This document shows, one piece after another, positions 8,636 through 30,352 of a DNA stretch of 64,000 nucleotides. The notes under the pieces were generated by a model that was not told the origin of the DNA, searched no databases, and saw nothing but the letters and a program-made list of their open reading frames with translations. This stretch comes from Pseudovirgaria hyperparasitica (Eukaryota): NCBI GenBank assembly GCA_010093815.1, contig ML996572.1. One strand, 5' to 3'. Position 1 is the first letter of the stretch, and each line of letters opens with the position of its first letter. Position numbers and translations under genes: made by a program.

Positions 8636-9836
8636 ATGCCTCCTCCTCCACCTCCTCCCCCAAAGATCCTAGATTCCCACATCCATCTCTGGCCCGCCAG
8701 CGCCGCCAACCCGCAGAGCCACACCTGGATGCAGACACAGCCGGGCCACACCCACCCACTCGCACACGAGCACAGCATATCCGACTACCTCGCCTCCTGC
8801 GGCACGCCCGCCCCGTCCGGCTTCGTCTACGTCGAGACTGACCGCGCGCTCCCTACGTCCCCACCCCCCGACTCCGACTCCGACTCCGACATATCCGACG
8901 CAGAACTCCGCCGCTACGCCGCCCAACCGCTCGAGGAAATCCGGTTCTTGAGACGGATCGTCGAGGGCGAGGGAGTATCCGAGGGCAACGGGGCCGAGCA
9001 CAAGGCGCTGCTAAAGGGGATTGTGCTGTGGGCGCCGGTGCATCTGGGTCCGAAGACACTGCGGCGGTATCTTGTGGTGGCGGAGCAGACTGCGGGAGCG
9101 GAGACGTGGGGCTTGGTGAAGGGGTTCCGGGTCCTGCTGCAGGGATGGCGGGACCGGGAGGGGTTTCTGCGGCTTGTGACTGGGGAGGCGTGGATTGGGG
9201 GGTTGGCGGAGCTGGGGGCGCGTGGGTTCGCGTTTGATGTTGGGGTTGATCAGCGGGGTGGGGGGGTTTGGCAGCTTGAGGGGGTGGTTGAGATGGTTGT
9301 GAGGTTGGGGAGGGTTGGGACGCGGCCGAGGTTGATACTGAGTGAGTTTGGAAGGGGGGGGCGCGGATTTCCTGGGATGTTGGTTGCTGATGAGGGGTGT
9401 AGATCATCTTTGCAAGCCGGATGTTAGGGGCCGGTTGCGGACTGCGGAGCAGTTGCGTGATTATGCTCGTTGGGTTAAAGTCATGGAGGTCTTGGCTGGG
9501 TTTCCGGATTATCCGGGCATATACGTGAAGCTTTCCGGAGCTTTCTCCGAGATGGAGGACCAGGACGAGTCGGATCCGCTGTCGACAGACGATATTGCTG
9601 AACAACTCAAACCTTGGGTCGATGTTGTTCTGAATGCATTTGGCCCTGATCGAGTCATGTTTGGGAGCGACTGGCCGGTGTGTAATGTTGGAGGACCGGG
9701 AGAAGGGAAATCCTGGAAGAGCTGGCAGGCGTATGTGGCAAAGGTTATTGCTGATCGAGGCTTGGAGTCTGACGACGAGACTGGGGCGTCGAAGATATGG
9801 GGAGGTACAGCATGCGAAGCGTACGGAATTACGTGA
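8636..9836 (+). CDS. LRA2: Amidohydrolase_2 family, probable L-rhamnono-gamma-lactonase; exons 8636-9341, 9403-9836
   Basis: Motifs ILDSHIHLWP, YVETDR, NHLCKP (formed across intron 9342-9402, GTGAGT..GCTGAT..TAG), YVKLSG, FGSDWPVC. Confidence 0.8.
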
Positions 9837-13930: not shown

Positions 13931-16900
13931 GATTTTTTGTCTGAGCGGATCAAGCCGCTGAGTATGCCTGCCTCTTCATGTGCTTCCATGATCATAGTGC
14001 TAGCCAGACTATACATGCGCTGGAGAGCAGCACCGCCCTGCCGTAGTTACTGTTGTTTGACTGAAGCTGTGCCTTTGTCCAATCTCTTCCACGTTACAAG
14101 CTGCCTGAACAGGCGTCGCCAGATAAATGGCCCGATCGCAAATTCATGACAGGTGAGATCCCTGGGCCACACAAAAGAATATGCTGCAAGCTTCCAGAAG
14201 AGATAGTCAAGCCAGTAACAAGAGCAGGGGAGGGGTGCAGGTCATGAGTGTAATGAAAGAATTATACGGATGCACGATAGCGCCGAGCGAGACGATCATC
14301 CCCCTTTTTCAGTGGTCGGGGGGAAGGGCAGGGCCGTTTGCGCCTCTTTCCGAGTGCCAGCCACCATCCAGCCAACCAGCCAAGGCAAGAAGTCGAATCT
14401 AAAACCACAGAAGCGGCATACCGTGCGAGATAATAGCTGTGAACACCTTGATACCGTTCTCAGCAAATATAAAATTCCGGCAGGGTATGGTCGATTGATT
14501 ACCATCCCACGTGGGTAGATGCAGAGAGCAGCTCGTCCAATACCATGTGGACCATGTGGGATCAACGGCCAACCGGGTCCACTTTGCGAGATTGTTTGGG
14601 ATTGGGCAATGAAAAAAAGCACAAGAAGAATGTTGTTCTATAACCAGTAACGGCTTCTTTTGTTCTGTGATCCGTTGAGACCCACAACACGCAGCTTGTA
14701 GGCTGGCTGGTGGTGAAGAGAGAGAGAGTGTGTGTGCATTGGGTACCGGCGTATTGGGAAAATGCAGTGAGTGTGAGAAATGAGTGTGGAGCATGGGTGG
14801 AGTCTAGAGCCCGCAACGCTGGGTTAGCAATCGGGGATAACGACCCGCAGCGACGACTAGGAGTTGTAGGAGGATGATGGTCGTGTTCTTTCTTATGATC
14901 CAAACCTTCTAGCTCCCTCCCTGCCCATGAGCAAGATAGCCGTTTATGGGGCCAGATGGAGTGGAAGGAACAGCCACGAAGCTATTCCACAACTTAAATT
15001 CAATCTAGATGACACTCTACCAGGTCCGAGCCAAGGATGTCTACAGGATGAGATTGGATAGCGGCGTACGGGGGCGAGAATGCAAGGTACAACCTGACAG
15101 GAGTGAGAGAAGTGAGAGTTGTCTGGAGGCGAGACGTATGATTTCACAATCCTTTTTCGACCAGCATCGTGGGCTGACAGCGGATGCTTGAAGGACGGCC
15201 GGCAGACAGTGGCAGTAGCAGGAGGGAGGTGTGGAAGAACTGATATCATCAAGGCTTATTTTTGGCTCATGATGCATTCGGCTGGAGTAACGCGACGGAT
15301 GCAAGGTGATCGTGGCCGTGGCCCGCAGCAGCATGGCAGGCTGGTATACATGGAAAAAAGCATCATCGGCATCATGAACAGGCAAACAACGCGCCAGCTT
15401 CGATGCAGGCGCATGGATAGGAAAAAAAGGTAGATGAGGATGCATAAATTATGATGATAATGAGTTTTGTTGGTGGTGGTGGTGGTGGACGAAGTGAATT
15501 GTGGGTGGCCCGTTAGCGGCACTCAGGACAGGGTGAGACGGGTTCTGCAGCAGTTCTGGGGGGTTGCCTCATTTGGGCTCAATTTGGGGGAAGCGGGCCT
15601 ATGTTGGCTACTTTCTTGGACAAACGGGCTGACACGACGACCATCATGACGCCCTGGGCTGTAGGCTGCATAGTAGTAGTAGTAGTAGTCAGGTACCAGT
15701 GGACAGCCAGTACCGGTGTAGTATAGTGAGTATACTACTACTAAACAACAGATATGCTGTGGAACCGGACAGGACAGACACAGGCTGCCGCTGCGGGCTG
15801 CAAGGAGCCGCCAGTCTGTTGCTTCATTGGAAGTTAGAACACCCATTAGCCTGAACTTTGAGCTACTGTACAATCCGACTAAACTCCAACATCAACGCCT
15901 TGAAACATGCCTCCGGTTCCTGGACCCCCCCTGGAATTGTCCGAGAGCAGTCTTGCTCGCACTTTTTGCTAAACTTCCTGAGCAATCAAACTGCTTCTGC
16001 TGCCTGGAGGGCTCATCATCATCATCACCATAATCATCATCGTTTCTGCTTAGTGCCCATGCCGCGGCCGTCCATCGTCGCAGCTTGGATCTTTTGCACA
16101 TCATCACCTATACTGCAAATTGATAGTCCAAACATTCCAAGACACTTACTTGCTTGGACGAAGCACTACAACTGTCTGTCGACTAGTATGCATGCGTCCG
16201 GCTCTCTTGCCGCATCTTCCAATGTTCCAATGCCGGCAAGCTAGATTACTACTACTGTACTACTACTAATACTGCTACGACCATCTCCTGGGATGGCCAA
16301 CGTCAAGCCGGAATTGTTGTTGCCCAACGGCTCACCCTTGAAATGAAAATAAAACAAAAAGGCTGTGGTGGTGATGACGACGACGCCCAAGGTATAATAA
16401 GCTGTACAGTGACAGTCATCGTAAAGCGGGAACAACACGACGAGGCCTTGGGAGTGCTAAAGCGACCAGTGACGGGTGGAATGCGACGTCTCTCAATCTC
16501 ATTTGACTCTCTCTATTATGGGCTTTGTGGTAAGGTGGGAGGGGGGAGGGGGGGGGTTAGACAAAGGATGGTGGTACGCTCGGTGCAGGGCGCGGACTGA
16601 TCGCACAGGCACCGCCGCTTGGGGACACGTCCACGCCCTGACGGGAAATTTTAAAACAAAAAAAAAGCAGAGGCCTTCCAACGGACACAGAGTCAAATGT
16701 CATCTAATCCGGACCATGGGAAAGGGGCCCCTAGGACATATATTCTTTCCGTGCCCACGCCTATCCCATGAACTCTTCTAACTTTTGATATCCTTCCTGT
16801 ACCATCATCTCCTCACCTCGATACCTCCGTCGTGCGCTGGTTTAGCATTTCTTCCTGCCTCGCTTCCATACCTCAAAACCTCGACCTTCAACGTTACCTC

Positions 16901-17306
16901 CACGACAACAATACTGTCGACGCCGCCATCTCCGTCGTCTGTAATATAACAAGATCCAAAAGAGGCACCTTGCACTACCGCGCTCTGCCATAATACGTCG
17001 ATTCTACCTCTCACAAGCAGTTTCGCTTCTGCAACCGCATCCTCAAACGAGCTACCAATCTCACAGCTCACATCCGATTTGGTAATTTCACGCGCTCATC
17101 CGACGACCACCACCACTACTACTACAACAACAACGAAGCTTTGATCCTGTGTCCGCGACGCGCTTGGATTTCGCATTGCACCCAGTGAGTCAATTCTACA
17201 GCTATAATAAGCTGACTGCGCCGATGCGGTTGCTGAGTGGGGTGCGATTACTGACAATCTATAAATCCAGGCTTCCTCCACGCCTCAAACACACTTCATT
17301 CCAACA

Positions 17307-17405
17307 ATGATTGTCAGGGTAGAACTCGCAATGCCAATGGGACGCGGCGCTTACGATACTACGGGCACGCCGAAACCACCTCCGCCTCCTCCGAAAAGGC
17401 GATGA
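17307..17405 (+). CDS. Candidate 32-aa microprotein MIVRVELAMPMGRGAYDTTGTPKPPPPPPKRR (alternative in-frame starts 17331, 17337)
   Basis: First ATG after a canonical intron (17185-17270, GTGAGT..TACTGAC..CAG); good context CAACAATG; no exonic ATG seen from 16771 to 17306; second canonical intron downstream at 17607-17666. Confidence 0.65.
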   Translation: MIVRVELAMPMGRGAYDTTGTPKPPPPPPKRR

Positions 17406-20216
17406 CAAGCTTCAAGCTACCGCACACACCTTTTGAGCTCTCTCACTGGTCGCGCCAAACCTTTTCCTACCCACATCTATTCGTCTCCTTTTCATACCAT
17501 CCTATTCAGCTTGCGACTTTATGGAGAATACTGGGTCCGGCACGACTGCTCTTTCCGCCACATTGAAACGTTCCACACTGACAGCGGGAATGGCTCGTCT
17601 CGCATCGTAAGTCGCTACCCTTGATTCTTACAACGTGGGCAGCCTCGCTAACATTGTCCTTGACAGTCAATCTCCCCGCGTCGCAAATAACCCTGAACCC
17701 TTTCATCCTCCTCGGCACGACTCCCTGACCTGCCTGTCTCATTTGAATCCACACTTGCAACAATTTCCGTCCGCCTCGCCAGTATCGTCCTTTTAATCCC
17801 AGCGTCTTATTTTCCGTTCAGCGATTAATACCCTTGCGAGCGTCCGTTCAGCATCTCATTCGTCCTTTTCGGCTTTTGTATCACTACTAGATCGTCCTCC
17901 CGTCACTTCAACACTGCTGCGACATCTGCTTTTTCAGCACTTGTATATGGGGAAATCTTTCTCTCAAAAAGTTGGTTCTCTTTTGTTTTCGGCGTTTACA
18001 CTATAGACTGGGAAGCTCAAGCTGCAACAATCAAAATCGGGGTCTCTTTTTTCTATATTTTCCTTTCGGCTTACATTTTCCTTTTGCCATTTGTTTTCTG
18101 GATAGACAAACTGGGATCGGCCAGAACATTTCCCCCAGCTCGCGGCTCGCGCTGCATATGAGTCTGTGGAGGGGAGCAACATTTTGTACAATAGCTCTCA
18201 GAGCAAAGAGAAAAGCGCAGAACAGGCTGGCCCCAAATGAAGCTTGCGCTTGGGAGGGAAAAAGAGAAAACTCGCGTACGGCATGTTGTTACGATGTTCA
18301 GTTTTCTTCCTACCACGGTTGGTGGAGCTACTCCTGTCTATCACGGCACCATGAGGATCGCGCTGAACACTACGGGGCTGTTCAGTCCGTGTATCGTTGC
18401 ACACATACACACACAATACACACTTGTACAAATATCACGGTGGCCAGCCACACACACACCAGGGGGAGCAGGAGCAGGAGTATTTTTCACTACGTAACTA
18501 GCTTTCACGAATATAGACTATACCATCAACTTCTTTCCACGCTGTATAATGACTGTCGTCTAGCATAGCTGACAGACGGCAGAGCATAAATTTAATCACG
18601 AGACCAGCAGTGCTCACAACACAGTCAGCCGTCTCACCATGCCGTCGTTGTCGTTGTTGCTGTTGTGTCATCCCACGCAAACCAACTCCCAGGGCTGCAG
18701 CTTAGCTTAGCTAGGTAGAGCTACCTAGCTATGGTCGAATATGGTATCATTATCCCCACGAACTATTACTCCTGCCCCTCACCTCCGCTCCCGGCTCGTG
18801 CCCCAGCTGCGGCCGCGGCCACCGTTCCACCTTATTTCCCCCAAACCTGGTAGACCGATTGACCGACCGACCGACCGGCTGACTGACTGACTGAACAAAC
18901 ACTCTTCCATTAATTAGCTGCAGAACGTGCAGACTGCGCTTCTTTTCATCCTTCTTCAAAGAAGATAAGCTGGGATTACAGTCTGCATGAACTCATCATG
19001 TCTTGGTGCCGCGTGGAGACTGCGTTTGTGCATGCATGTCTTGTTCCTTGTCTTGTTCTATCGTGGTTTTTTTCTCTTACAGACTCTCTACCGTTTTTCT
19101 GGATTAATTATTACTTCTTCGTGCATGGCTAAATTAGTACATGGTACAGCATAGCACGGCACGGCACGTATGGCACAGCATAGTTCTTGTTCACGGGCAA
19201 TTCTATTTTGCATTCTATTTGTATGCAGGCATGCAGCCTTGTCCTGATATAATAGCCTGTTTTTTTGCAAATAGCTTGGTTAGGGAGGGAGGTAGAGGGA
19301 TGGCATGTGTGACGAACTACTCTGTAGTACCGTGTAGGCAGTAGGTAGGTATGTAAATGTCAGCATCCACGTGCCTGGTGCTCGGTGCCCGTCTGGTGCG
19401 GCGTAGCATGGATGGGTGGATGGACGGATGGAATGATGGAGTGATGGAGTGATGGAGTGATGGAGTGACTGAAAGACTGAGTGAGTGCGTGAGTGAGTGC
19501 GCAACGGGCAGATTATATTATCTTATATCATCCACACACACACACACACACAGCATTTCCCAGGTACAGCAAAGCAAGGCAAAGCAAGGTAAGCCAAGCC
19601 AGTCGATAATTATCAGCATTAGCATGCCTGGCACCGCAATCCCATCGTCTCACCTCATTTCCACAACAACAACACACACACCCACTCTCTCTCTCTCTCT
19701 CTCGCGCGCTCTGGCTCTGCCTCCTCCCTTCCGCTCCTGCTCACATCACCTCACTTTTCCTCGACGCTCGTCCGTTCGGTCTTCCGCACGATGCCGCGCG
19801 CGGGCTGGGATGGGGTGTTGTTCTGCGTGTGTTGTGATGGTGGGCGACCCGGTGGTGTGGAGTTGTGGAGGGATGTGGGAGGGTGGGAGATATACAATTC
19901 GATGGATGGTTATACTTGTTTCGTTGCTTGCTTGCCTGCCTTGTGTTGCTGGGCGTGACCATACACTCTACACGCTACATAATTAGTATGTACGCGTGAG
20001 ACGACCATCGCAGCACCAAGACCGCACGCCGCTGGAGAATTCATGAGGGTTTCTCAAGCGTCCAGTGTATTTTAGTGTTCTAAACGTTTAAAACAAAGAC
20101 TTACTGAGTAATCATGTAGTCAATAGTTTAGCCGAAGTAATATCCGCTACCCTTCTATCCGCCTCTTCTTCTTCTCTCTCTCTCTCCCTCTCTCTCCCTC
20201 TCTTCCTCCCTCCCCC

Positions 20217-20421
20217 NNNNNNNNNNNNNNNNNNNNNNNNNNNNNNNNNNNNNNNNNNNNNNNNNNNNNNNNNNNNNNNNNNNNNNNNNNNNNNNNNNNN
20301 NNNNNNNNNNNNNNNNNNNNNNNNNNNNNNNNNNNNNNNNNNNNNNNNNNNNNNNNNNNNNNNNNNNNNNNNNNNNNNNNNNNNNNNNNNNNNNNNNNNN
20401 NNNNNNNNNNNNNNNNNNNNN
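20217..20421. other. Assembly gap (205 N)
   Basis: Run of N. Confidence 1.
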
Positions 20422-20537
20422 AAAACAACACTGATTACACGTGTTTTTTGACTGATTTTGACTGATTTTGACCTCGCAGGCTTCAAAACAACACTGATTA
20501 CACGTGTTTTTGATTGATTTTGACTGATTTTGACCTC
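20422..20537 (+). repeat. Tandem ~63-bp repeat (2 visible copies) inside the transposon
   Basis: AAAACAACACTGATTACACGTGTTTTT..GA(C/T)TGATTTTGACTGATTTTGACCTC starts at 20422 and 20485. Confidence 0.9.
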
Positions 20538-23018
20538 ACGGGTGACGGATATACACGTGCTTTAAGTTTGTTCTATATTACTTAGTAAGACGGCTTCGAT
20601 ATATGGTATAATAGCCGACTCGTATAGTACATATAATACAGCTGGACGCTTGAGAAACCCTCGAATTCATTCATCCGTTCATACCACTAGCACCACCATC
20701 CACCATCCACCACCCTCCTCATCACCACCGTGATTCAGAAACTATAACACATTCCAATCCGCCCTACAAACACCCCGTGCCGCCGCGCACACACATACCC
20801 ACCCTTCCATACACACAACACACCACAGCACAACACACAACACACACGCCACAAAAAGCATACTTCCAGCCGTATTCCAGCACCCTCACACAAGCTCCAT
20901 CCCTGCCTTCGAGCGTGGTGCGCGGCTAGGCTTGCTGCTGCTACTGCTGCTGCTGCTGCTGCGAGGTCCTTACATATCGTAAGACTATTCCGGGGTTTGA
21001 TGGTGCGGGTTGGGACTGGGGGAAGGGAACAGGGGAGGTATTAGGGGCAGGAGAGTAGGGCTGCATATGTGTGTGGTGTGTGGTGTGGTGTGTGGTGTGG
21101 ATGTATGGTGTTGTGTTGGTGTTGGTGTGGGGTGCGGTTGGGTGGGGTGTTCGTGTGAGGTGCCGAAGGAGGGAGGGCATGGATGGATTCATGGATGCTA
21201 GAAAGCTTACACGCATGCATGCATGCATACCTTGGTAGGAACGGGCGCGAACGTGTAACTTGGCCAAGCCGGGATGGATAAGTAAAGAAATATTAAAGAA
21301 AGAAAAAAAGGAGCCTGTCTTGGTAACTACAAAGCCAAAGCGGCATGCGTTCTTCGCACCGATGATTTACGTGTTTCAACACGGCTAGCTGGCTGTACCT
21401 ACCTACCTACCTACCTACCTACAGTCGAGGAACTGATTAATTATATCCCTGGCTCTGGCTCTAGCTCTGGCCCTAGGCAACGCAGTGCCTCACGGCTCAT
21501 ACATGAATACATATCATGCAACCCGTACAGGACTAGAGGTCGGACTATGCTGTGTTCTAAAACGGAATAGAAGATTTACCTTACCTTACCCCGTGATTGT
21601 GATTTTTGGGACATATTGCGTTTTCTTTCGCGCAGTGTGGGTTTCCTTGACTATCTGGGAAACTACTCGCCGACCTAGGTGTCGTGCCTGGCATGCATGC
21701 ATGAGCGAGAACGGTTTCGTGCCGGTCGGTTCCCAGGAGGAGCGGGGAGAGGCGAGGGGGTGGTGTGTGTTTGCGTATGTGTGTGCGTGTGTGTAACACC
21801 GGGAAGGGAAGGGAAGGGAAGGGGGCGCATAGTGCTACTAGGTGGAAAGGACATGTTTACGGATGGATGTAAGGCATATGTATATACCTATATATATATA
21901 CTGTGACGAGTCTGTGTGGATGTGTGTGACTCCCTTCGTGACCTGGTGCAACAAGGAAGGCCGTAGGAGGAAAAAGGAACGGGTGTAGGTGTTTGGGGGA
22001 CTTGGCGACTGTTATACCTTTTGACGAGACTTTTGTCTCACGACGACGCACGAGGACATCAGGAAATTGAAATTAGAAGGAGACACTCGGGAGGCTTTAT
22101 GCTGGGGTCTGGCTTGGTTGAGTGTGTTGCGGCGGTCTGATGCTGCTGCGCAAGTGACATGCCTTGGATGAGAAGGCGACAGGCTATGATGCGAGAAAAA
22201 GCGCTCGTCCATTGGAATTGAGGGATATTACAAGGGGGAAGATGTGTATCTTTTTTTTTCTTTCCTGATCGGATGCGACGTCCGGGAAGTGTTATTGCGC
22301 ACGTGTCGAGGACATGGAGCGTCGCAAAAGGCATTCCAGAACAAAGCGGGACTTACTTTATACTAAAGAATTCTTCTGCGAGTTTAGAGCGGTGGAGCAG
22401 GAATCTGCTTAAATCACTCTACTAATCTCCTTTTGGTTTAACCTGCGAGTGAGGATGTCGTATGAGCCTATCGCATGGTTTCTCGTGCCATTCATGCTAG
22501 ATACCCTTAGTGCCTAGCCTCCCCGCTGGAAAACTACCATGTTTCTTTAAATACACATCCAAACGGCCCGTCACCGTTTCAACTCGACAAACGTCATGCT
22601 ACCCTCGTGTTATTCGAGCGGACATCGTCCGAGCACCACGATGGCACTGCGGGACTGCGACTATAGGAATAGAGCAACTTTCACAGGGCTGGGTCGCGGC
22701 CCCATCGCTGGTGACCTTTCTTATAAAGAGGGATGAAATTCTGTCCAAGACTTGCCACGGATCCTATACGGTCTCTCTTCGTCTGGGCAGTTCACCCTGC
22801 GCTGCACAATAACAGCCTCCTCTACATATCAGCTTCCGATTCGAGTCGACCTCCGATACAAACCGATCTCCGCTTCAGGTTGACCTACAAGCCATATCAA
22901 CCCCTCAATACATATCGACTACCAATACACATCAACCTTCAATACGATTCAACCTCCGATGCAGCTATACCTCCGATAAAATTCAAACGCCATCTGAGCC
23001 CCAAACCTTGTCCTCATT

Positions 23019-23600
23019 ATGCGTCTTTTGAACGTACTTGCTGCTTTGGTGGCCTTCACCAGTAATTTCGTGGCCGTCACCAGTATACGCGTCCCCTTCA
23101 AGACGAGTCCTCACCAAACAAACGCGAAAGTCGCAAGCAAAGTCATTTCAGCTGAAGAATTATCACATTGGCGTGAGGGCCGAGAATTTCATGACGATTT
23201 ACTTGGCGGAATTGTCGTATGCGAACATAGCAATGGCATAGCAGTGCACGAGGAAGATGTTAAGCAAGCCAGAGACGACCTACGTGAGTGGGCCAAAGAC
23301 CCCGAGACCGGAGATCCGTACATCAAGGAATTTGGTAGGAGAACCTCAAAGAAATACAGGATCCCCACTGAGAAGTCTACTTTTGCCTTCGCCTATGCTT
23401 GTGACTATGGCGAGGGGCAAGAGATTAATTATGATTCTCTCGACCTCATAGGGCGGTTGATCATCGAGTTCTGCGGCGTAAACGGCTTAGGCTATATCTC
23501 GATATATAAATGGAAGGCAAGTTACGGTTGGACCATGCAAACCAGAGACGATTATTGCTATCCGGAGAAGGAACACCTGAAACAGCCCGAACCGAAGTGA
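23019..23600 (+). CDS. Small secreted protein, 193 aa, effector-like
   Basis: Signal peptide MRLLNVLAALVAFTSNFVAVTS; 4 Cys; single intact ORF after a C/A-rich 5' leader. Confidence 0.75.
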   Translation: MRLLNVLAALVAFTSNFVAVTSIRVPFKTSPHQTNAKVASKVISAEELSHWREGREFHDDLLGGIVVCEHSNGIAVHEEDVKQARDDLREWAKDPETGDPYIKEFGRRTSKKYRIPTEKSTFAFAYACDYGEGQEINYDSLDLIGRLIIEFCGVNGLGYISIYKWKASYGWTMQTRDDYCYPEKEHLKQPEPK

Positions 23601-24198
23601 TCTAGGTTCTTCAATAAGAAAACGGCGCTAGTAACAAAGTGCCGAGAAATAAGGGCCAAGAGGGTAAAGACTTGTTATATAGCACTAATAGGTTAGCACG
23701 ATTCTATATCATGTAGCACTACACTATGAGAGTTGATATATTTGTCTGCATGTCGATCGAGTGTGACCAGTGTCCCTATGTGTATTGTCAAGTGTAATCA
23801 TGTGAGGTTGCTCCTCTCCAAGTGCTTACGCATGCGACATGTGACTTCGTATCAACGGGTGTAGTGCAGTAGGTATCAAGTATACTAAGTCAATATACAA
23901 GATTACTATAAATCATTACTCATATATCTAAGAACAGAACATTCACTGAATATTAGACCTAACGTTTGAGAGCCTGAGGCCAACAATCCCTCCCCACATT
24001 CCGGGCAGGGCCAAGATCGACCTCAACCCCCACCAACCTGGCACCACACCTTGAACTTTAAAGCTCAGTCGAAACCACGATAACATACAAAACCTACACA
24101 ACATCATCCTCCGCACACGCGCACGCCCTCCCATCTTCCCAACGTCTCCCCATTCGAAGTCTCGCTGAGGACATCCCTCCGCCGCATCCCAACCCAGA

Positions 24199-25505
24199 AT
24201 GACAACCTCCATCGCCGCCGGCGGCGGCAACTGGCGCACCATCAACATCGACGCCCTAGACCCAGACTCGCCCTACAACTTCGACGTATCCGCACTCGCA
24301 CCGTCCGTTGACCCCGTGAGCGCCGCGGACGTGACAAGCCTGGGCACACAGATACGGCAGTTGCTGCGCGGAGGAGACGCAGAGGGCGCGCTGAGGGGCG
24401 CATTGGAAAGTGTGCCGTACGGGGCCGACGCAAAGGGGAAGGTCAGTAAAGCCCTTCTCTTTGTTTTCCCCCCCCCCTTCAGCCACTATTGGATCTCGAA
24501 AACCTGCCATGTCGGTGCAGATGGAGGGGTGGTATGCTGGGGTGCGGCAAGCAACGAAAGAGTGGGCATCGTGGCGGAATCAGGGGGAATGAATCGGGGA
24601 AGATGTTCTGGAAGACTGGCGGCTTCGGGGGGACAGACATCAGGAGGTTCTGGACGGATATGGCACGAGAGAAGAGATTGGACTGTGTGCGACGCTTCTG
24701 GAAATATTGGATGTGTCTTCCACACACGCCCTGGCTCGCGGGTGCGTGTGCGTGTGCTCGACGTCCCAACGCTCGTCGTCCTGCTTTTCCAGAACATCTC
24801 GCACGCGCATGCGCCCTCCGTCGCGGTATCACGAGCTCCGCACGTCCAAATTGCACACTCGCACATCAAGCTAGCACACAAAGCCCACTTCGCTAACACA
24901 CGCATCGCGCAGGAAACCCACCTCGGCACCATCATCGAGATCCTACAGAGCATCCGCCAGGCCGAAATGAGTCCGATCCTGCAACGCATCTATGCCTCGG
25001 ACGGCGGCGTCGAGCTGCTGGATGTGTTGATGAAGTACATGTACGTGTCCGCTAGAATCCCTCCTTTTCCCTCTCTTCACCCGCTTCCTCCTTTTCCCTT
25101 CCCCTCTCCTCACCCCCTTACCACCAACCCTCGAGCAAAGCAAACACACTGACCTCCCACAACCAGCTACAAAGGCATGGCCCAACACACGTCCGTCGCC
25201 GCCAAGCCAGCCATCCAGCCCCAACCAACCGGCTTCTCCCAGATCAGCGGACGAAGCGGAGGCGAGGGAGGCGGACAAGCTATGAGTGTGTTGTTGAGTT
25301 GGCATGAAAAGGTAATTTTGCTACATATGACGCGCCCTTTACCCCCCGCCCGTCCCAGGGCTTTGGCTCAAATGCATCTTTTATCTTTTCTTCCAAAAAA
25401 AAAAAGTTCATGGGCTAACCTGGAGAATTAACAAAATCGCAGTTGGTAGAAATCGCTGGTACAGGAAGTATCGTGCGCGTCTTGACGGATCGACGGACTG
25501 TTTGA
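24199..25505 (+). CDS. ARC15: Arp2/3 complex subunit 5 (ARPC5); exons 24199-24441, 24913-25040, 25167-25311, 25443-25505
   Basis: [52 protein letters not shown]; three GT-AG introns restore the frame. Confidence 0.95.

Positions 25506-29026: not shown

Positions 29027-30352
<1,326 letters not shown>

Follow-up and report, generated by a model that had tools for sequence, protein, structure and literature searches.

A conserved three-exon micro-gene upstream of ARC15 in Pseudovirgaria hyperparasitica probably encodes a short, disordered, motif-bearing peptide

The DNA analysed here (the window) is a stretch of 64,000 nucleotides from contig ML996572.1 of Pseudovirgaria hyperparasitica. It contains a gene desert flanked on one side by an Amidohydro_2 gene, which ends at 9833, and on the other by ARC15 (ARPC5, the p16-Arc subunit of Arp2/3). 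The ARC15 query is 100% identical to the annotated P. hyperparasitica ARPC5 over the matched 60% (exon 1). In a Pfam scan of 98 stop-to-stop open reading frames (ORFs) of at least 70 aa, the 96 other ORFs between or beside the flank genes gave no match at the curated cut-off. Within the desert lies a putative spliced gene built around a single micro-ORF (Table 1). The features that the initial annotation described, namely the leader, two introns, ATG 17307 and the 32-codon ORF, are all present where it placed them.

Table 1. Features of the candidate micro-gene and its downstream neighbour in the window
Feature	Position	Strand	Basis and remarks
Inferred exon 1, pyrimidine-rich 5' leader without ATG	16771..17184	+	Predicted start of transcription
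Candidate intron 1, 5'UTR, 86 nt	17185..17270	+	CA|GTGAGT, TACTGAC, CAG
Inferred exon 2	17271..17606	+	Micro-ORF and ~200 nt of 3'UTR; bounded by two conserved introns
Micro-ORF	17307..17405	+	32 codons and TGA; translated sequence and homologues
Candidate intron 2, 3'UTR, 60 nt	17607..17666	+	GTAAGT, GCTAAC, CAG; begins 202 nt past the stop
Inferred exon 3, pyrimidine-rich 3'UTR	17667..18100	+	3' end approximate
ARC15/ARPC5 (p16-Arc, Arp2/3 subunit)	24199..25428	+	Pfam PF04699; synteny

Read from ATG 17307, with A at −3, to the TGA at 17403–17405, the peptide is MIVRVELAMPMGRGAYDTTGTPKPPPPPPKRR. It consists of an M-I-V-R start, a variable spacer, the GRGAYDTTGTPKP core, a P6 tract and KRR. 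AlphaFold2 predicts it to be without secondary structure. The exact peptide is missing from the protein collection, in which the neighbouring ARPC5 from the same genome is present. By itself, an ORF of 32 codons is within chance expectation. The leader is 61% C+T (254 of 414 bases) and contains no ATG, against 3.8 expected from its composition; a TATATT box is found at 16739–16744. The sole ATG in 16771–17306, at 17224, lies within candidate intron 1 and would be spliced out. The same intron carries a TATAAA box directly past its branch site. On the other side of the ORF, the pyrimidine fraction stays at 0.60–0.69 until about 700 nt past the stop and is 0.48 and 0.38 thereafter.

Two classes of peptide precursor were considered and rejected. 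Dikaritin-type RiPP precursors have a signal peptide and repeats flanked by Kex2 sites, with a UstYa/DUF3328 gene close by, and lipopeptide pheromone precursors end in a C-terminal CaaX box. The peptide is without a hydrophobic N-terminal stretch and without Cys, and the Pfam scan detected no UstYa/DUF3328 family in the 9.8–24.2 kb interval.

Comparative data show that the micro-ORF is not a product of chance, since its relatives are spread over four classes of filamentous ascomycetes. In the family layout, M-I-x-R-[E/D] is linked by a short variable spacer to GRGAYDTTG[T/V]PKP, after which come a Pro/Lys tract and the stop; this layout recurs in Dothideo-, Sordario-, Leotio- and Eurotiomycetes and in 43 metagenome loci. 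An exhaustive HMM search returned 199 cluster representatives with E≤1e-3, 68 of them with E≤1e-10, and matches down to E=1e-24; the 46-aa frame used as a query matched 17 small proteins, and the motif was also located in 94 longer, over-extended gene models, for the most part at the very C-terminus with the stop right behind it. Three annotations already contain the micro-ORF as a protein of 31–33 aa: SMACR_12796 of Sordaria macrospora (33 aa), CTA1_1554 of Colletotrichum tanaceti (32 aa) and Vi05172_g7821 of Venturia inaequalis (31 aa). Alternaria arborescens AA0113_g5417 (43 aa) and Neurospora crassa B12F1.170, a 172-aa over-extended model, are further homologues. All five are entered as 'hypothetical protein', and each has the M-I-x-R start, the GRGAYDTTG[T/V]PKP core and a Pro/Lys tail that soon runs into a stop. 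In most genomes the model is absent, as in P. hyperparasitica, or bears a spurious upstream extension. Similar MGRGAY micro-ORFs thus do exist in other filamentous ascomycetes, as the initial annotation had suggested for MGRG-type sequences. A full-text literature search with the motif and the homologue locus tags found no paper, and the S. macrospora proteogenomics paper and three of its supplements do not mention the homologue locus.

The micro-ORF of the window fits this family. Its residues 12–24 match GRG[A/S/G]YDTTG[T/V/L]xKP and precede a Pro/Lys/Arg-rich tail, M-I-x-R lies about 10 codons 5' of the core, and the stop follows soon after the tail, the 32 codons falling within the 29–35 of the family. 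A candidate 5'UTR intron near the start, an AUG-free leader and a candidate 3'UTR intron are likewise present. The core is invariant in 18/18 aligned sequences; among HMM matches, replacement of its A by S or G and of T by S is tolerated. Start and core are kept in all 43 metagenome loci, and because these form 30 distinct sequence groups, contaminant copies of one sequence are excluded. That the peptide core is nearly unchanged across four classes argues for a real gene. The strongest conservation is seen in the last ~20–23 residues, beside the Pro run and near the stop, and the N-terminal M-I-x-R is conserved despite its distance from the stop. A run of at least six Pro is not conserved, many lineages having PKPKPPPK or PPQPPKP instead. 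Beyond the Pro tract, both the residues (K, KRR, KPR, SK, QPQ) and the stop codon (TAA, TAG, TGA) vary. In Xylariales proteins the motif is present twice, and a paralogue family of 177–255 aa carries it at the N-terminus.

These longer forms raise the question of whether the ORF might be the first exon or a fragment of a larger gene, its stop being spliced out, or the decayed remnant of a long-form paralogue. The 177–255 aa family opens with the same motif and runs past it, and an 80-aa gene model of Saccharata proteae continues after KRR. Nevertheless, in all 42 metagenome loci that reach that far (one locus ends earlier), the Pro/Lys tract is followed after a few codons at most by the stop, and 82 of 103 further homologues end at this point as well. 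Moreover, downstream frames are not conserved, ORFs across intron 2 show no conservation among the compared loci, and the window ORF contains no internal 5' splice site. We consider a larger gene very improbable.

The pattern of substitutions points to selection on the peptide rather than on the DNA. Among the metagenome loci, pS is 0.67–0.69 and pN is 0.07–0.13 in flanking codons outside the search pattern; the pN of 0 within the pattern is partly circular for its eight residues, because the loci were retrieved with GAYDTTGT. The codon-level conservation for which the initial annotation had proposed a search was thus found (pS ~0.67, pN 0 to 0.13). All synonymous codons are in use among 33 distinct core DNAs, with Arg encoded by CGN and AGA. 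In a six-frame comparison of window positions 14000–20200, only the micro-ORF frame, of 169 pieces, matched other loci, and DNA-level matches were confined to positions −10..+99. On these sequence comparisons, the peptide is under strong purifying selection across Pezizomycotina, and the ORF of 29–35 codons (32 here) is the sole conserved coding content of the micro-gene. A chance ORF that happens to overlap a conserved element of the DNA or RNA, for instance an enhancer or a structured RNA, could be suggested by the commonness of 30-codon ORFs and by TATA-like and TGAGTCA-like elements nearby. This reading is effectively refuted by third positions that are saturated while the amino acids stay fixed, the opposite of nucleotide-level constraint; in addition, the start and stop codons are both maintained, the 28 representatives (ORF length 29–35 aa) share no second open frame, and Rfam gave no matches. 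We therefore regard a non-coding element as hardly credible, and a translated, selected coding gene as very probable.

The surroundings of the ORF are conserved as architecture. In the homologous stretch from −350 to −125 of 26 loci, ATG occurs 4 times against 47.3 expected, while each of the remaining A/T/G permutations occurs 25–32 times; farther upstream no depletion is seen (84 versus 85.2 expected). As the long AUG-free leader is kept, the first AUG would be that of the micro-ORF. A strict canonical intron ends 14–36 nt 5' of the start codon in 17/29 loci (25/29 with a relaxed pattern), against a background of 0.136 strict matches per kb. In 14/23 representative loci a strict intron begins 121–241 nt past the stop. 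Judging from these sequence patterns, the combination of a 5'UTR intron, an ATG-free leader and a 3'UTR intron is a conserved gene architecture. Together with the relatives and the selection described above, it lends strong support to the earlier proposal of a dedicated spliced small-peptide gene missed by annotation. According to PMC7746235, which cites Zhang and Sachs 2015, 3'UTR introns in Neurospora recruit nonsense-mediated decay (NMD) via the EJC. Given its 3'UTR intron and long 3'UTR, the micro-gene mRNA is likely a target of exon-junction-dependent NMD. Such sensitivity would hold peptide output low and adjustable.

The linkage of the micro-ORF to ARC15, which the initial annotation had put forward as a synteny check, is recurrent. 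ARC15 lies downstream on the same strand in 13/18 informative lineages, at 1.1–2.3 kb (6.8 kb in the window). Upstream of the micro-ORF, a Pfam-free zone of at least 4.7 kb recurs in 7/7 loci; it is the one observation in favour of the initial annotation's speculative view of roughly 7 kb of upstream regulatory DNA and a developmental gene. The linkage to ARC15 could indicate a nascent regulatory peptide acting in cis, whose C-terminal 20 residues and Pro run stall elongation, for example upon a change in eIF5A or polyamine status. The stall would decide what happens to the NMD-prone RNA on which it occurs, or would set ARC15 expression by read-through transcription or interference, and the RNA would be a sensor rather than a message for a functional protein. 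The clustering of conservation in the last 20–23 residues, beside PP(P) and near the stop, is consistent with such a role, as is the conserved 3'UTR intron, which lies over 120 nt beyond the stop and could make decay depend on the result of translation. Yet the same transcript has no conserved downstream ORF, and the ATG density in the gap up to ARC15 is as expected (189 versus 208 in 12 loci); it seems that ARC15 is not co-cistronic with the micro-ORF and has a separate transcript. In 5 lineages the next Pfam-matching gene is convergent (2OG-Fe(II) oxygenase, Glyoxalase_3 or SRP40). The variability of the residues after the Pro tract and of the stop codon also speaks against stalling, and the in-ORF duplication in Xylariales, the fusion to a 180–250 aa protein and the conserved M-I-x-R fit a mature-peptide function better. 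On balance, a cis-acting peptide is rather unlikely.

The locus as a whole is probably best explained as an independently transcribed three-exon micro-gene encoding a disordered, motif-bearing peptide. Its product would be a short, intrinsically disordered peptide working in trans, which offers a conserved partner a short linear motif made up of GRGAYDTTG and the Pro/Lys-rich stretch behind it. We lean slightly towards action in trans as a motif carrier. Motif doubling in Xylariales, paralogues with the motif at the N-terminus, the conserved M-I-x-R and the absence of predicted structure count for a trans-acting module. Against it counts the conserved block of ~20 C-terminal residues beside the Pro run near the stop, which is also the signature of a ribosome-arrest peptide, and a purely trans model leaves the same-strand ARC15 linkage unexplained. 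The Pro-rich tail is a further difficulty. SH3 ligands have PxxP with a flanking basic residue, profilin binds an uninterrupted run of at least six Pro, and EVH1 recognizes FPPPP. The tail here contains K-x-x-P-x-x-P as well as P6; elsewhere in the family it reads PKPKPPPK, PPQPPKPSRR, PPPRPKPR or KKPGAPPPPPK, with no single register and neither P6 nor FPPPP family-wide, so that no one SH3 or profilin consensus appears to fit across lineages. The initial annotation had put forward SH3, WW, EVH1 or profilin binding, eIF5A-dependent stalling and Arg methylation as speculative roles of the peptide; among these, profilin-type poly-Pro binding is disfavoured as a common role because the run of at least six Pro is not conserved. 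One could also imagine, as an improbable combination, a translational sensor and effector common to Pezizomycotina: ribosomes on the GRGAYDTTG-polyPro ORF would report elongation capacity (eIF5A/polyamine status) and, via the 3'UTR intron (EJC/NMD), set the level of the RNA located immediately upstream of ARC15, the released peptide reusing the motif as a protein ligand. Such reuse would account for the motif being found doubled and fused, and translational state would be coupled to actin nucleation and hyphal growth.

If translated, the peptide would be among the most deeply conserved fungal micro-proteins, with a 13-residue core essentially unchanged in Dothideo-, Sordario-, Leotio- and Eurotiomycetes. 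The gene is missing from the P. hyperparasitica annotation and mis-modelled in most other genomes, and it illustrates what is lost to length cut-offs in fungal 'gene deserts'. Homologues in the tractable genera Neurospora, Sordaria, Podospora, Trichoderma and Colletotrichum make its function directly testable. For filamentous fungi it is also a candidate natural reporter, either of EJC-dependent NMD or of polyproline translation.

Several known systems share part of these properties. Neurospora NMD-target mRNAs with spliced 3'UTR introns likewise carry a spliceable intron well past the stop, the position of which is conserved here; the known examples encode normal-sized proteins, whereas the NMD status of the micro-gene is a prediction. 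Fungal and other eukaryotic arrest peptides include the arginine attenuator peptide and polyamine/eIF5A-responsive uORFs. Like these and the conserved-peptide upstream ORFs (CPuORFs, as defined in PMC3426882), the micro-ORF is very short, has a C-terminal part conserved at the peptide level and a Pro run, and is opened by the first AUG of a long leader-like RNA with a likely coupling to mRNA decay. In contrast to them, its transcript has no conserved main ORF downstream, its neighbours differ among lineages, and its motif is also duplicated or fused in longer proteins. A further likeness is to animal and plant smORF micro-proteins on non-coding-looking RNAs, where a stand-alone transcript has a sub-cut-off ORF as its only selected feature; the amino-acid-level purifying selection expected of them is found here too (pS 0.67–0.69 versus pN 0–0.13), and tandem motif copies in some lineages recall repeated-peptide smORFs. 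Unlike those, this family is fungal and Pezizomycotina-wide, with a motif of its own and conserved 5'UTR and 3'UTR introns.

The unannotated 32-codon ORF on the plus strand of the window is very probably a stand-alone, selected coding micro-gene, a reading founded on sequence comparison. A search with the 46-aa stop-to-stop frame around the 32-aa peptide recovered 17 small proteins, the best at E=1.8e-7; NCBI entries from Alternaria, Microthyrium, Saccharata and Venturia, labelled 'hypothetical protein', are among them. They have a common layout consisting of M-I-x-R-[E/D], 5-8 variable residues, (M)GRGAYDTTGTPKP, a Pro/Lys tract, 1-3 basic residues and the stop, and GRGAYDTTGTPKP is unchanged in 18/18 aligned sequences. 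The residue preceding GRG, Met in the window, is Phe in Neurospora and Trichoderma and Gln in Diaporthe, and therefore the true start is the upstream M-I-x-R. A profile search gave 94 matches to longer proteins, most of them with the motif (GRGAYDTTG core and Pro/Lys tract) at the extreme C-terminus; in these gene models the reading frame has been carried too far upstream, through a leader rich in pyrimidines and poor in stops. When 1.84 billion cluster representatives were searched exhaustively by HMM, 199 matched at E<=1e-3, with 68 reaching E<=1e-10, and 82 of the 103 new matches with the motif terminate at most 26 residues from it. The initial annotation had suggested similar micro-ORFs in other filamentous ascomycetes, and relatives were indeed found in Dothideomycetes, Sordariomycetes (Neurospora crassa B12F1.170, Podospora, Trichoderma, Colletotrichum, Diaporthe, Pyricularia), Leotiomycetes (Hymenoscyphus) and Eurotiomycetes (Thermomyces, Microsporum, Arthroderma). 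The exact micro-ORF is annotated in a few cases, namely Sordaria macrospora SMACR_12796 (33 aa) and Colletotrichum CTA1_1554 (32 aa). It is unannotated in the Pseudovirgaria hyperparasitica genome, and a collection of 15 billion proteins contains the neighbouring ARPC5 and lacks the peptide.

Other resources added little. Neither the peptide nor its homologues matched Pfam, the ESM Atlas search gave no usable match and no cluster, and the PDB profile search found no solved relative, only a chance poly-Pro match to Cox6b (E=0.39). A retrotransposon Gag match (Penicillium, E=0.3) has only nine residues in common, probably by chance, and was rejected as a relative. Literature searches yielded nothing on the motif, B12F1.170 or SMAC(R)_12796, though supplementary tables may list them, and nothing on a GRGAYDTTG peptide family was found in the general smORF and uORF literature.

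A scan of metagenome contigs with the pattern GAYDTTGT provided 43 loci, which fall into 30 distinct sequence groups, and the micro-ORF is present in all 43. Among the 33 distinct core DNAs, four codons each are in use for Gly, Ala and Thr, and Arg is encoded by both CGN and AGA, while the residues are fixed. Nei-Gojobori estimates were pS 0.69 and pN 0 for the eight search-pattern codons, whose invariance is partly circular because the loci were picked through GAYDTTGT; for the flanking codons beyond the pattern, pS was 0.66-0.67 and pN 0.07-0.13. The HMM matches show substitutions of A by S or G and of T by S. Each of the other frames is closed in at least one of the 28 representatives, and among 169 six-frame pieces of window 14000-20200 the micro-ORF frame alone matches the loci (43/43). 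DNA-level alignment with the loci is restricted to -10..+99 relative to the ATG. Selection thus acts on the codons rather than on the DNA, and comparative genomics supports the core proposal of the initial annotation, a dedicated small-peptide gene.

Features of the micro-gene and its nearest Pfam-recognisable neighbours in the window
Feature	Position	Strand	Remarks
Amidohydro_2 gene	ends 9833		nearest upstream Pfam-recognisable gene
5' leader / inferred exon 1	~16771-17184	+	61% pyrimidine; start inferred
Candidate intron 1	17185-17270	+	GTGAGT, TACTGAC, CAG
Inferred exon 2	17271-17606	+	from sequence
Micro-ORF	ATG 17307, TGA 17403-17405	+	A at -3; encodes MIVRVELAMPMGRGAYDTTGTPKPPPPPPKRR
Candidate intron 2	17607-17666	+	GTAAGT, GCTAAC, CAG
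Inferred exon 3	17667 to ~18100	+	pyrimidine-rich after intron 2; 3' end inferred
ARC15	starts 24199	+	nearest downstream Pfam-recognisable gene

The leader, the two candidate introns and the ORF described initially are all present in the window at the positions given, and we infer an mRNA of three exons, the position of both ends included. The leader contains no ATG against 3.8 expected, and the sole ATG 5' of the micro-ORF start, at 17224, lies within candidate intron 1. The same depletion is seen beyond the window: in the interval -350..-125, summed over 26 loci, ATG occurs 4 times vs 47.3 expected, and each of the other A/T/G permutations occurs 25-32 times; at -800..-500 ATG is found 84 times vs 85.2 expected. 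The depletion is the signature of a scanned leader, with the micro-ORF start as the first AUG. A strict canonical intron pattern (GT[AG]AGT, CT[AG]A[CT], YAG), which has an overall frequency of 0.136 per kb, ends 14-36 nt 5' of the start codon in 17/29 loci (25/29 with a relaxed pattern) and begins 121-241 nt past the stop in 14/23 representatives (+202 in the window). ORFs spanning intron 2 have nothing in common between loci. A purine occupies -3 in 19/23 representatives, and codon 2 is Ile in all. From these regularities we infer the exon/intron architecture of the family. Of 82 peptides that would span a spliced intron-1 junction, 0 occurred among the homologous proteins, a result that is uninformative, as the unspliced readings likewise gave 0.

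Several short elements accompany the introns. TATAAA follows the TACTGAC branch site of intron 1 (window 17240-17270), and in 22/29 loci the 70 nt before the start codon include a TATA-like box (background 0.9 per kb). The box could serve as an internal promoter that yields a near-leaderless transcript, or it could be linked to splicing. At the 5' splice site of intron 1 (window 17185-17192), 14/29 loci read GTGAGTCA, which includes TGAGTCA (background 0.14 per kb), the consensus site of AP-1/Gcn4-type bZIP factors; the overlap may have arisen by coincidence from the splice-site consensus, or the element may serve both uses. Short conserved blocks surround and enter intron 2 (window 17560-17640; metagenome loci L005-L010, L021 and L036): an exonic block of GGGA(A)TG, 11-13 nt and CGCnTC stands directly 5' of GTAAGT, and CCTTGCATG occurs inside the intron of most loci, with no clear match in the window. 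They are possible splicing-control elements. The Rfam scan found no family at threshold, and the minus-strand match at 16048-16111 to the C/D-box snoRNA family sR2, below threshold at 21.2 bits (gathering score 42, E=0.49), is probably due to chance. The tRNA scan found none.

Other ORFs on or near the putative transcript were rejected. A 54-codon ORF from 17402, whose ATG overlaps the micro-ORF stop as ATGA, is not conserved among the loci, and the overlap is peculiar to the window, given that stop codons differ between loci. The ORF from 17521, in frame across intron 2, is not conserved either. The 225-codon open frame at 17891-18568 matches no Pfam family, and its pyrimidine-rich sequence offers few stops. 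Apart from the Amidohydro_2 gene and ARC15 themselves, none of the 96 stop-to-stop ORFs of at least 70 aa between or next to the two genes gave a Pfam match at the curated cut-off.

The synteny with ARC15, the Arp2/3 subunit gene (ARPC5) downstream, was borne out in part of the family. In 17 loci (13 groups) ARC15 lies on the same strand 1.1-2.3 kb past the micro-ORF stop; the distance in the window is 6.8 kb. Another 6 loci (5 groups), which extend 4.6-6 kb downstream, lack it, and the remaining 20 loci are too short downstream (0-1.7 kb) to judge. The window is fungal DNA, and its ARC15 exon shows 100% identity with the ARPC5 annotated in Pseudovirgaria hyperparasitica (Dothideomycetes, Acrospermales). 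ATG occurs at the expected density between the micro-ORF and ARC15 (189 vs 208 expected in 12 loci; 106 vs 94.5 in the window), and therefore the micro-ORF is not a uORF of ARC15. The convergent orientation of the next Pfam-matched gene in the loci without ARC15 (2OG-Fe(II) oxygenase, Glyoxalase_3 or SRP40) also led to the rejection of that reading. Complex prediction for the peptide with the same-genome ARPC5 scored 0.00, which is no answer and bears neither way on binding. No upstream gene is conserved beyond close relatives. In 7/7 loci with ~6 kb upstream, the nearest upstream Pfam domain is at least 4.7 kb away or absent (128 ORFs scanned of 169 listed, i.e., every ORF of those seven loci), which agrees with the long upstream region noted initially as far as its length is concerned.

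The window interval 18100-24199 holds ~5.7 kb more DNA between micro-gene and ARC15 than is found in the 13 lineages with 1.1-2.3 kb spacing. It contains no Pfam domains; CA, CT and CCGA/CTGA microsatellites are present, together with a MITE-like element at 20045-20662, in which 42-nt terminal inverted repeats (76% complementary) enclose 62-63-nt tandem repeats and a masked N run (20217-20421). Elsewhere the window carries an ordinary GH11 xylanase gene (29027-29992) and alpha/beta-hydrolase gene (939-2066).

The motif also occurs in larger proteins. Unnamed proteins of 177-255 aa (P0100, P0102, P0096, P0108, P0084, P0097, P0074) carry it N-terminally, in the order RLRGG-like stretch, RGAYDTTG-KPKPPPK, conserved QWEEMNRR block and Lys-rich tail. 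At the curated cut-off none of them matches Pfam, and the family resembles a longer paralogue of the micro-protein. Two tandem copies are found in proteins of 58-181 aa (P0124, P0129, P0131, P0143, P0148, P0206); where a source is named (P0124, P0143, P0148), it belongs to the Xylariales: Rostrohypoxylon, Anthostomella and Xylaria.

The favoured mechanism is that the product would be a trans-acting, intrinsically disordered peptide carrying a short linear motif, because no secondary structure is predicted for it, the motif occurs in tandem and fused forms, and the distal M-I-x-R is kept. AlphaFold2 with the family alignment predicted no secondary structure (mean pLDDT 75, pTM 0.25), and the N-terminal M-I-x-R is conserved although distant from the stop. 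The main rival, a peptide arresting its own ribosome in cis, is in our judgement less likely: conservation is highest in the C-terminal ~20 residues, beside the Pro run, and the ARC15 linkage is left unexplained, as might suit such a peptide, but there is no conserved downstream cistron, the C-terminal residues and stop codons vary, and the motif also occurs duplicated and fused. As to possible partners of a trans-acting peptide, the six-proline run is not conserved (PKPKPPPK, PPQPPKPSRR or KKPGAPPPPPK in other lineages), and therefore profilin-type binding, raised in the initial annotation, is unlikely as a common function; for SH3 domains, no single register fits every lineage. At the mRNA level, EJC-dependent NMD elicited by a 3'UTR intron is described for Neurospora in PMC7746235, with reference to Zhang and Sachs 2015. 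Such control of the micro-gene mRNA via its conserved 3'UTR intron is plausible.

In size and conservation pattern the micro-ORF resembles conserved-peptide uORFs, but the conserved main ORF downstream that defines them is missing. Its true relatives are uncharacterised 'hypothetical proteins'. The micro-gene fits the class of smORF-encoded micro-proteins, and we file it there as a putative, uncharacterised addition whose conservation is unusually deep and extends to the arrangement of its UTR introns.
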